From Candidatus Terraquivivens tikiterensis (GTDB lineage: Archaea; Thermoproteota; Nitrososphaeria_A; Caldarchaeales; Wolframiiraptoraceae), in assembly GCA_003056285.1 (NCBI GenBank), contig NDWU01000004.1:21228-85227 (forward strand): DNA of 64,000 nucleotides, in the 5' to 3' direction. Shown here in pieces: positions 42,288-43,842 of this stretch (the stretch's first letter is position 1; each line of letters begins with the position of its first letter). Made by a program: the position numbers and the translations under genes. The notes beneath the pieces are model-generated. The model had not been told where the DNA came from and did no database searches. It saw nothing but the letters and a program-made list of their open reading frames with translations.

Positions 42288-43842
42288 AGGAGGTGATCCG
42301 GCCGCACGTTCCCGTGCGGCCACCTTGTTACGACTTCTGCCTCCTCGCCAAGCCTAAGCTCGACCCGGCCAACGAGACCGGGCCTCGCTTAGACCCAGCT
42401 CGGATGCAGCGACGGGCAGTGTGTGCAAGGAGCGGGGACGTATTCACCGCCCGATGGTAACGGGCGGTTACTAGGGATTCCGCGTTCACGAGGGCGAGTT
42501 GCAACCCTCGATCCCAACTGAGGTGGGGTTTAGGGATTGGCTCCCCCTTTCGGGGTCGCAACCCATTGTCCCCACCATTGAACGTCGCGTGCGGCCCGGG
42601 GGATTCGGGGCATACTGACCTGCCGTGGCCCGCTCCTTCCTCCCCCTTTCGGGGGCAGTCCCCTCAGAGTGCCCGGCGCCTTTCGGCCCGATGGCAACTG
42701 AGGGCGCGGGTCTCGTCCGTTGCCTGAATTAACAGGACACCTCACGGCACGCATTCGCCCCGCAACGATGACCTAATTTGCGGTCTGGCGACGGCCATGC
42801 ACCTCCTCTCAGCTCGTCCGGCAAGGCCTTCAACCTGGCCTTCATCCTGCTGTCGCCCCCGGTAAGGTCTCCGGGAGCCCTGTAACCGCACGCGCGGCTC
42901 TTTCCGGCGTTGACTCCAATTAAGCCGCAACGTCCACCCCTTGTGGTGCTCCCCCGCCAATTCCTTTAAGTTTCAGCCTTGCGGCCGTACTCCCCAGGCG
43001 GCGGGCTTAATGGTTTCCCTTCGGCACCGCGCCAGCCCGTAGCTGGCGCGACACCTAGCCCGCATCGTTTACGGCTGGGACTACCGGGGTATCTAATCCC
43101 GTTCGCTCCCCCAGCTTTCGTCCCTCACCGTCGGGCATGTTCTGGCCGACCGCCTTCGCCACTGGTGGTCCTCCTAGGATCAGTGGATTTTACCCCTACC
43201 CTAGGAGTACCGTCGGCCTCTCCCATCCCCAAGCCCAGCAGTATTCTCCGCAGCCCGGCGGTTAGGCCGCCGGATTTAACGGAGAACACACTGGGCCGGC
43301 TACGGACGCTTTAAGCCCAATAAAAGTCCCCACCACTCGCGGAGCGGGTATTACCGCGGCGGCTGACACCCGTCTTGCCCCCCGCTTATTCGCCCAGCTG
43401 TTCACACTGGGCAAAAGCCACCACGAGGGTGGCACTCGGGATGGCCTCGTCGCGCTTGCGCGCATTGCGAAGGTTTCGCGCCTGCTGCGCCCCGTAGGGC
43501 CTGGACTCTTGTCTCAGAGTCCATCTCCGGGCTCCCCCTCTCAGGGCCCGTACCGGTTACAGGCTTGGTGGGCCGTTACCCCACCAACTACCTGATCGGC
43601 CGCAGCCCCATCCCAAGGCTGTGCCAGGAGCACCCTCCTGGCACAATTTCGGTGACGGGTCCTTCCAGAGCCCATCACCTATGGAGGTTTATGCCCCAGT
43701 TTCCCGGGGTTATCCTCCTCCTTGGGGTAGGTTGGCCACGTGTTACTGAGCCGTGCGCCATGGCCGCAGAAGCCGCGGCCATAGACTTGCATGGCTTAGT
43801 CCCATCCCGATAGCAGTGGGGTCCGGCAGGATCAACCGGAGT
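42288..43842 (-). rRNA. 16S rRNA gene, stand-alone, with two ~32-nt insertions
   Basis: On the minus strand it starts ..ACUCCGGUUGAUCCUGCCGGA and ends ..GGAUCACCUCCU. The conserved 515 and 1492 regions are present. Flanks pair as a processing stem: 42250-42268 (CCTAGGAG..CTCCAGGC) with 43847-43877 (GCCTGGAG..CTCCTAGG). Length of 1555 nt exceeds the usual ~1500. Confidence 0.95.

Follow-up and report, generated by a model that had tools for sequence, protein, structure and literature searches.

Two short inserts in conserved blocks of the 16S rRNA gene of Candidatus Terraquivivens tikiterensis are probably hairpin-type archaeal BHB introns

The 16S rRNA gene of Candidatus Terraquivivens tikiterensis raises the question of how two stretches of extra sequence come to lie within blocks of the molecule that are supposed to be invariant, and whether they form part of the mature rRNA or are spliced out of its precursor. 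The window analyzed here, which is the whole 64,000-nt stretch of DNA, contains a single 16S rRNA gene, archaeal in type and encoded by the minus strand (42288..43842; 1555 nt; a full-length match to Rfam RF01959 at 1433 bits), and no 23S gene lies within these 64 kb. Alignment with the Rfam archaeal SSU model sets 34 nt against 1 model position after UCAAC, in the h31 region, and 39 nt against 8 model positions after CAG, in the h34/h35 region, while alignment with the 16S genes of 20 related genomes gives the exact lengths of the inserts as 33 nt (42869-42901) and 31 nt (42754-42784). Together they add 64 nt to a gene that measures 1491 nt without them. The initial annotation had placed two inserts within conserved 16S blocks, and both the Rfam alignment and the 20 related genes bear this out. 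Its coordinates for insert 1 (42869-42901) were exact, although the string it bracketed has 32 nt and the true length is 33, and its coordinates for insert 2 (42753-42784) were right except for one base too many, the U at 42753 being part of the 3′ exon. In E. coli numbering, obtained by alignment against rrsH, the insertion sites are 977/978 and 1068/1069, close to the ~970 and ~1065 regions named in the initial annotation. Neither insert contains an ORF.

The present analysis suggests that each insert is a short archaeal hairpin-type intron, protein-free and defined by a BHB motif at its junctions, and that it would be cleaved out, the exons ligated and the intron probably circularized in vivo; we put the probability of this reading at roughly 0.87. 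In each case, the insert and the end of the upstream exon can form a 4-bp central helix (H) together with two 3-nt bulges, which lie on opposite strands at the two exon–intron junctions and read AAA and AGA in intron 1 and AGA and AAU in intron 2. Archaeal introns are cut after the second base of each such bulge, and this position is marked below by a caret. Folding of the exons and inserts together, one of the checks proposed with the initial annotation, recovered the motif in canonical form for intron 2; the motif of intron 1 is of a relaxed form and is the best fold of its isolated core. The self-complementary arms that it had pointed out, GAGCC/GGCUC in insert 1 and CCGCAA/UUGCGG in insert 2, are real and constitute the inner helices (h′) of the two motifs.

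Intron 2 (ACCGCAAAUUAGGUCAUCGUUGCGGGGCGAA; 42754..42784, minus strand) is located at the start of helix 35. In RNA sense the substrate reads CAUGGCCGU-CGCC-AG^A-CCGCAA-(12 nt)-UUGCGG-GGCG-AA^U-GCGUGCCGUG. The exon strand of its central helix, CGCC (42787..42790), is followed by the bulge A-G^A (42784-42786), and the intron strand, GGCG (42756..42759), by the bulge A-A^U (42753-42755). The inner helix and its 12-nt loop occupy 42760..42783, with CCGCAA (42778-42783) pairing with UUGCGG (42760-42765), and in the whole substrate (42743..42799, minus strand) an outer exon helix (h) is formed by CAUGGCCGU (42791-42799) and GCG-U-GCCGUG (42743-42752). A canonical hBHBh′ motif has two or more Watson–Crick pairs in each of its outer helices (PMC7714728), and intron 2 is of this kind: h begins with CGU/GCG and, interrupted by a single bulged U, reaches 9 bp, and h′ has 6 bp. 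The structure as drawn is the minimum free energy (MFE) fold at both 37 and 75 °C, the RNAfold MFE of the substrate being −23.9 kcal/mol, equal to that of the drawn BHB structure.

Intron 1 (AGAGCCGCGCGUGCGGUUACAGGGCUCCCGGAG; 42869..42901, minus strand) lies immediately 3′ of helix 31 and reads, with its junctions, CCGG-AA^A-GAGCC-(16 nt)-GGCUC-CCGG-AG^A. Here, the exon strand of the central helix is CCGG (42904..42907), followed by the bulge A-A^A (42901-42903), and the intron strand is a second CCGG (42871..42874), followed by the bulge A-G^A (42868-42870). The inner helix with its 16-nt interior spans 42875..42900, GAGCC (42896-42900) pairing with GGCUC (42875-42879). This helix has 5 bp, and the outer exon helix consists of a single G–C pair, because of which the motif is relaxed (HBh′-type) rather than canonical hBHBh′. 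The isolated core of intron 1 folds as H, AAA bulge, and h′, and for this isolated core the BHB structure is the best fold; in exon context it has −12.9 kcal/mol versus −16.0 kcal/mol for the MFE fold. The (αβ)2 splicing endonuclease of the TACK archaea tolerates relaxed BHB motifs and variant bulge forms (PMC7714728).

It is this relaxed motif, with no proper outer helix and not the MFE fold in its exon context, that lends some color to the alternative in which the mature 16S rRNA keeps either or both of the inserts as small expansion hairpins, one adjoining helix 31 and the other in helix 34/35. Such retention is nevertheless very unlikely. Both inserts interrupt universally conserved core blocks of the Rfam model and not the variable regions in which expansion segments are placed, and the 3′ strand of helix 31 is the same CCGG that intron 1 uses for its central helix, so that helix 31 is unable to form for as long as the insert stays paired. 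The initial annotation had left the choice between “mini-introns or retained expansion segments”; the first is strongly supported by the BHB motifs, by predicted products that agree exactly with the sequences of relatives, and by the splicing machinery, whereas the location is not that of an expansion segment.

BHB geometry at the exact junctions is rare by chance, arising in 386 of 200,000 shuffles for insert 1 (0.19%) and in 117 of 200,000 for insert 2 (0.06%). In contrast, the fold stability of the inserts does not exceed chance expectation (z about −1.0 to −1.2). Since these z-scores are unremarkable and the BHB structure of intron 1 is not its MFE fold in exon context, the case for splicing is built on geometry and on comparison with related genes.

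The comparison was made by alignment with the 16S genes of relatives, again a check proposed at the outset, and at both sites the predicted splice products match the sequences of relatives that lack the insert. Intron 1 is missing in 13 aligned relatives, which read GCCGGAA joined to ACCTTACC or a near variant; the predicted product, GCCGGAA joined to ACCUUACC, is identical in 10 of the 13, and the remaining 3 differ by 1–3 bases. Intron 2 is missing in 20/20 aligned relatives, all of which read CGCCAG joined to TGCGTGCC or a near variant, and its predicted product, CGCCAG joined to UGCGUGCC, is identical in 12 of these, including all five congeners, with CGCCGG in 6 more. This agreement validates here the rule of cleavage after the second bulge base. 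It also settles, together with that rule, the boundary of insert 1, which had been called ambiguous because CCGGA is repeated: the junction is GGAA joined to ACC. An excision that would give the E. coli-like GGAGACC was considered and rejected, the relatives' own sequence being GGAA joined to ACC. For insert 2, the absence of any simple excision that restores the near-universal sequence had been taken to speak for an unusual mature form of the rRNA or for unusual splicing, and this interpretation is not supported. In 17 of the 20 aligned relatives, CAGUGCGUG or CGGUGCGUG, along with a changed 3′ partner strand, ACGGAC, replaces the usual CAGCUCGUG/ACGAGC, and canonical BHB cleavage yields just this CAGUGCGUG-type sequence. 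Because the relatives carry it too, CAGUGCGUG is the normal sequence of the lineage and not the trace of an unusual splice. Excision restoring the E. coli-like CAGCUCGUG was likewise rejected, given that the lineage's own sequence, as seen in the relatives, differs from it.

If both inserts are introns, then the following sequence of events may be proposed. In the precursor rRNA, each insert would pair with the end of its upstream exon to form a 4-bp helix between two 3-nt bulges; the splicing endonuclease, with catalytic and structural EndA subunits, would cut after the second base of each bulge; RtcB would then ligate the exons and probably circularize the 33- and 31-nt introns; and the mature 16S rRNA would be a normal molecule of 1491 nt. 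The components of this pathway are encoded in the genome. EndA is represented by two paralogs, both of which contain the N-terminal and the C-terminal endonuclease domain. In one, of 185 aa, the catalytic Tyr, His, and Lys are all in place, and the other, of 192 aa, is without the Tyr and His, a pairing that, as predicted from these sequences, is the catalytic-plus-structural arrangement of a heterotetrameric enzyme. RtcB is also encoded. Its gene (L261/L262, contig C38, 38737-41451) is a single 961-aa frame in which the regions matching Pfam positions 1-55 and 46-426 are ~1.35 kb apart, and this gap looks like an intein.

The same genome would provide further substrates for BHB-directed cleavage. 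Its 23S gene, which lies on another contig (L260, C31 45196-50065), is 4870 nt long versus 2987 positions in the model, and it contains three inserts of ~560-650 nt, at about 23S positions 1933-2534, 2664-3224, and 3743-4390, each carrying a LAGLIDADG ORF of 181, 107, or 125 aa (Pfam LAGLIDADG_3 / LAGLIDADG_1). As the 23S gene holds these three LAGLIDADG-ORF inserts, the organism must splice rRNA anyway. In addition, the flanks of the 16S gene (43865-43893 and 42229-42257, minus strand) pair to give a long processing stem, and this contains a perfect canonical BHB, CCGC-AAA / GCGG-AAA, in which GGGCUUCAGUCC-CCGC-AAA-UUCCUAGGAG pairs with CUCCUAGGAA-GCGG-AAA-GGACUGAAGCCC. ARAGORN found just 26 tRNAs in the whole genome, 12 of them with introns; both the count and the share fit an intron-rich lineage, and because so few tRNAs were found, many tRNA genes are probably disrupted at noncanonical places. 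Within the window, ARAGORN reports a tRNA-His(GTG) with a 32-nt intron at 45671-45774 (C22 66898-67001).

These observations bear on another possibility, namely that the BHB sites are cut and the exons are not rejoined, leaving a mature 16S rRNA in pieces that are held together by base pairing. Nothing direct speaks for fragmentation of this kind beyond the fact that cleavage and ligation are separate steps, while RtcB is encoded and ligation is required for the 23S introns that this genome contains. To our knowledge, the archaeal rRNA introns that have been described are ligated. Fragmentation is thus extremely unlikely.

Introns of this kind fit readily among known archaeal systems. Short (<50 nt) hairpin 16S introns that keep the BHB are a defined class (PMC4496867), and the inserts resemble its members in size, in the absence of an ORF, in the BHB core at the junctions, and in their location in the conserved core: they are 33 and 31 nt long, with the hairpins GAGCC/GGCUC and CCGCAA/UUGCGG, and fall into hairpin category iii. 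Jay and Inskeep (2015; PMC4496867) list 13 archaeal 16S intron loci (374, 548, 722, 781, 803, 901, 908, 919, 978, 1093, 1205, 1213, and 1391). Intron 1 corresponds to locus 978: its site is 977/978 when the BHB rule is applied, and the ambiguity of one base allows 978. In contrast, the site of intron 2, 1068, lies outside the 13 published loci (PMC4496867), a list that is a catalogue and not a definition of the class; it thus seems to be uncatalogued as a 16S intron site and would be added to those known.

The two 16S introns also share motif and orientation with archaeal tRNA introns, which have hBHBh′ or relaxed HBh′ motifs and are cut by EndA: H is made of 5′-exon bases and the 3′ end of the intron, and cleavage, presumably by the same enzyme, is after the second bulge base. 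They differ in their host, which is 16S rRNA, and they have no sequence similarity elsewhere in the genome, a blastn-short search of which found no other copy of either intron. The large LAGLIDADG rRNA introns of Thermoproteales, Desulfurococcales, and Aigarchaeota, of which this organism's own 23S gene holds three, use the same BHB splicing; unlike them, the 16S introns lack an ORF and therefore have no homing function of their own. Archaeal 16S and 23S genes are bordered by BHB processing stems, as is this 16S gene; these stems again involve the same enzyme and motif, but they release a whole rRNA from its precursor, rather than an intron from within an rRNA. Inserts in supposedly invariant 16S blocks would, on the splicing interpretation, be ordinary substrates of the archaeal splicing system, and their apparent oddity would be resolved.

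The two introns have distinct distributions. Intron 1 is present in 7/7 16S sequences recovered from the genus (six genomes and contig L137), with few substitutions and with the pairing kept, as in G001, where CCGG has become CUGG and is paired via G–U; intron 1 has long been established in the genus. At site 978, introns of 29 nt (G022), 245 nt (G039; L020 3102-3346), and 610 nt (G027; L022 2786-3395) occur in other genera of the class, so that introns of 29, 33, 245, and 610 nt are found there in four genera belonging to three families. These have only the BHB core, AGAG...CUCCCGGA(G/U), in common, and the 29-nt intron of G022 has a different h′, GAGGGGUUU/AAACCUCUC. That conservation among different inserts at one site is limited to BHB core elements argues further against their retention in the mature rRNA.

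The 245-nt intron has kept collinear similarity to the 610-nt form, in the 3′ part of the latter (75% over 53 nt), and to the end of the ORF that this longer form carries. Locus 978 has been listed as hairpin-only, in Caldiarchaeum-like sequences (PMC4496867); in contrast, the related genomes analyzed here also hold 245-nt and 610-nt, ORF-bearing forms. The size series of 610, 245, 33, and 29 nt, which is new for this locus, would fit an ORF-bearing intron that has been reduced to a bare hairpin, and so hairpins that are remnants of ORF-bearing introns; intron 1 probably descends, in reduced form, from such a longer intron at site 978. The 180-aa ORF of the 610-nt intron has no Pfam match above the cut-off, just a weak HTH-like C terminus, and because of this it cannot be called a homing endonuclease. 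A loose-pattern search of contigs for site 978 included chance bacterial matches among those listed, and normal 16S genes were seen to carry a second ACCTTACC ~45 nt downstream. Near another of the published loci, 1093, the 16S gene of G040 (L030, segment ~184-940) has a ~756-nt intron after GGCAA, which encodes the LAGLIDADG motif AYLAGLFDGDGS.

Intron 2, on the other hand, is found in this genome alone among 76 genomes of its class, and a search of the class that allowed as many as 3 mismatches detected no second copy. A 16S tree from intron-stripped sequences nests this genome within its genus, as sister to G006 (support 0.995). Given this nesting, the simplest history is a single gain of intron 2 on the terminal branch of this genome, and the intron was probably acquired there. 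The 16S genes with and without the inserts are 96–98% identical, and variation in presence and absence between genes so similar is a further argument against the inserts being structural parts of the mature rRNA.

The same restricted distribution raises the possibility that intron 2 is an artefact of assembly, or a variant carried by a minority of the population, rather than a fixed element, as it occurs in 1 of 76 class genomes, itself a single metagenome-assembled genome, with no second copy in the genome or the class. This is highly improbable: chance inserts have a canonical BHB at the exact boundaries in only ~0.06% of cases, the BHB structure of intron 2 is the MFE fold, the insert is internal to a contig of 103 kb, on which the 16S gene lies, and an unrelated archaeon carries a BHB intron at the same site. 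That archaeon, the distant, intron-rich G381 (L263), and metagenome contig L167 have a different intron, of 22 nt, at site 1068, which has the same forced core as intron 2, CGCC-AGA...GGCG-AA, here followed by C (AA^C); its splicing would restore the usual CAGCUCGUG. In the metagenome search for this site, 98 of 99 matches were chance occurrences in GC-rich coding DNA, and L167 was the only 16S gene. The rRNA genes on L167, which comes from a distant archaeon, contain a good deal of additional sequence: the 16S part (13084-14347) covers 900 model positions with 1264 nt, and the 23S gene (8904-12866) covers 2987 with 3963 nt.

With intron 2 accepted as a genuine BHB intron, a more specific proposal is that it represents a very recent, protein-free gain at the uncatalogued 16S site 1068, made with no homing endonuclease in the gene; we advance this tentatively and regard it as rather doubtful. 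If it is true, then the spread of hairpin introns is still under way in this lineage, by an endonuclease-independent route; candidates would be reverse splicing with subsequent recombination and gene conversion from a donor outside the sampled genomes. Also new would be the gain of an intron inside a genus with just 2–4% difference among its 16S genes. In practical terms, such introns lengthen amplicons and may disturb 16S alignment, chimera checks, and length filters in this hot-spring lineage. A separate departure from the Rfam model is seen near model positions 190-200 (window 43600-43650), where the gene has ~22 nt beyond the model in a variable hairpin (UUGugccag...cuggcaCAG); this looks like an ordinary variable-region extension, and not an intron.
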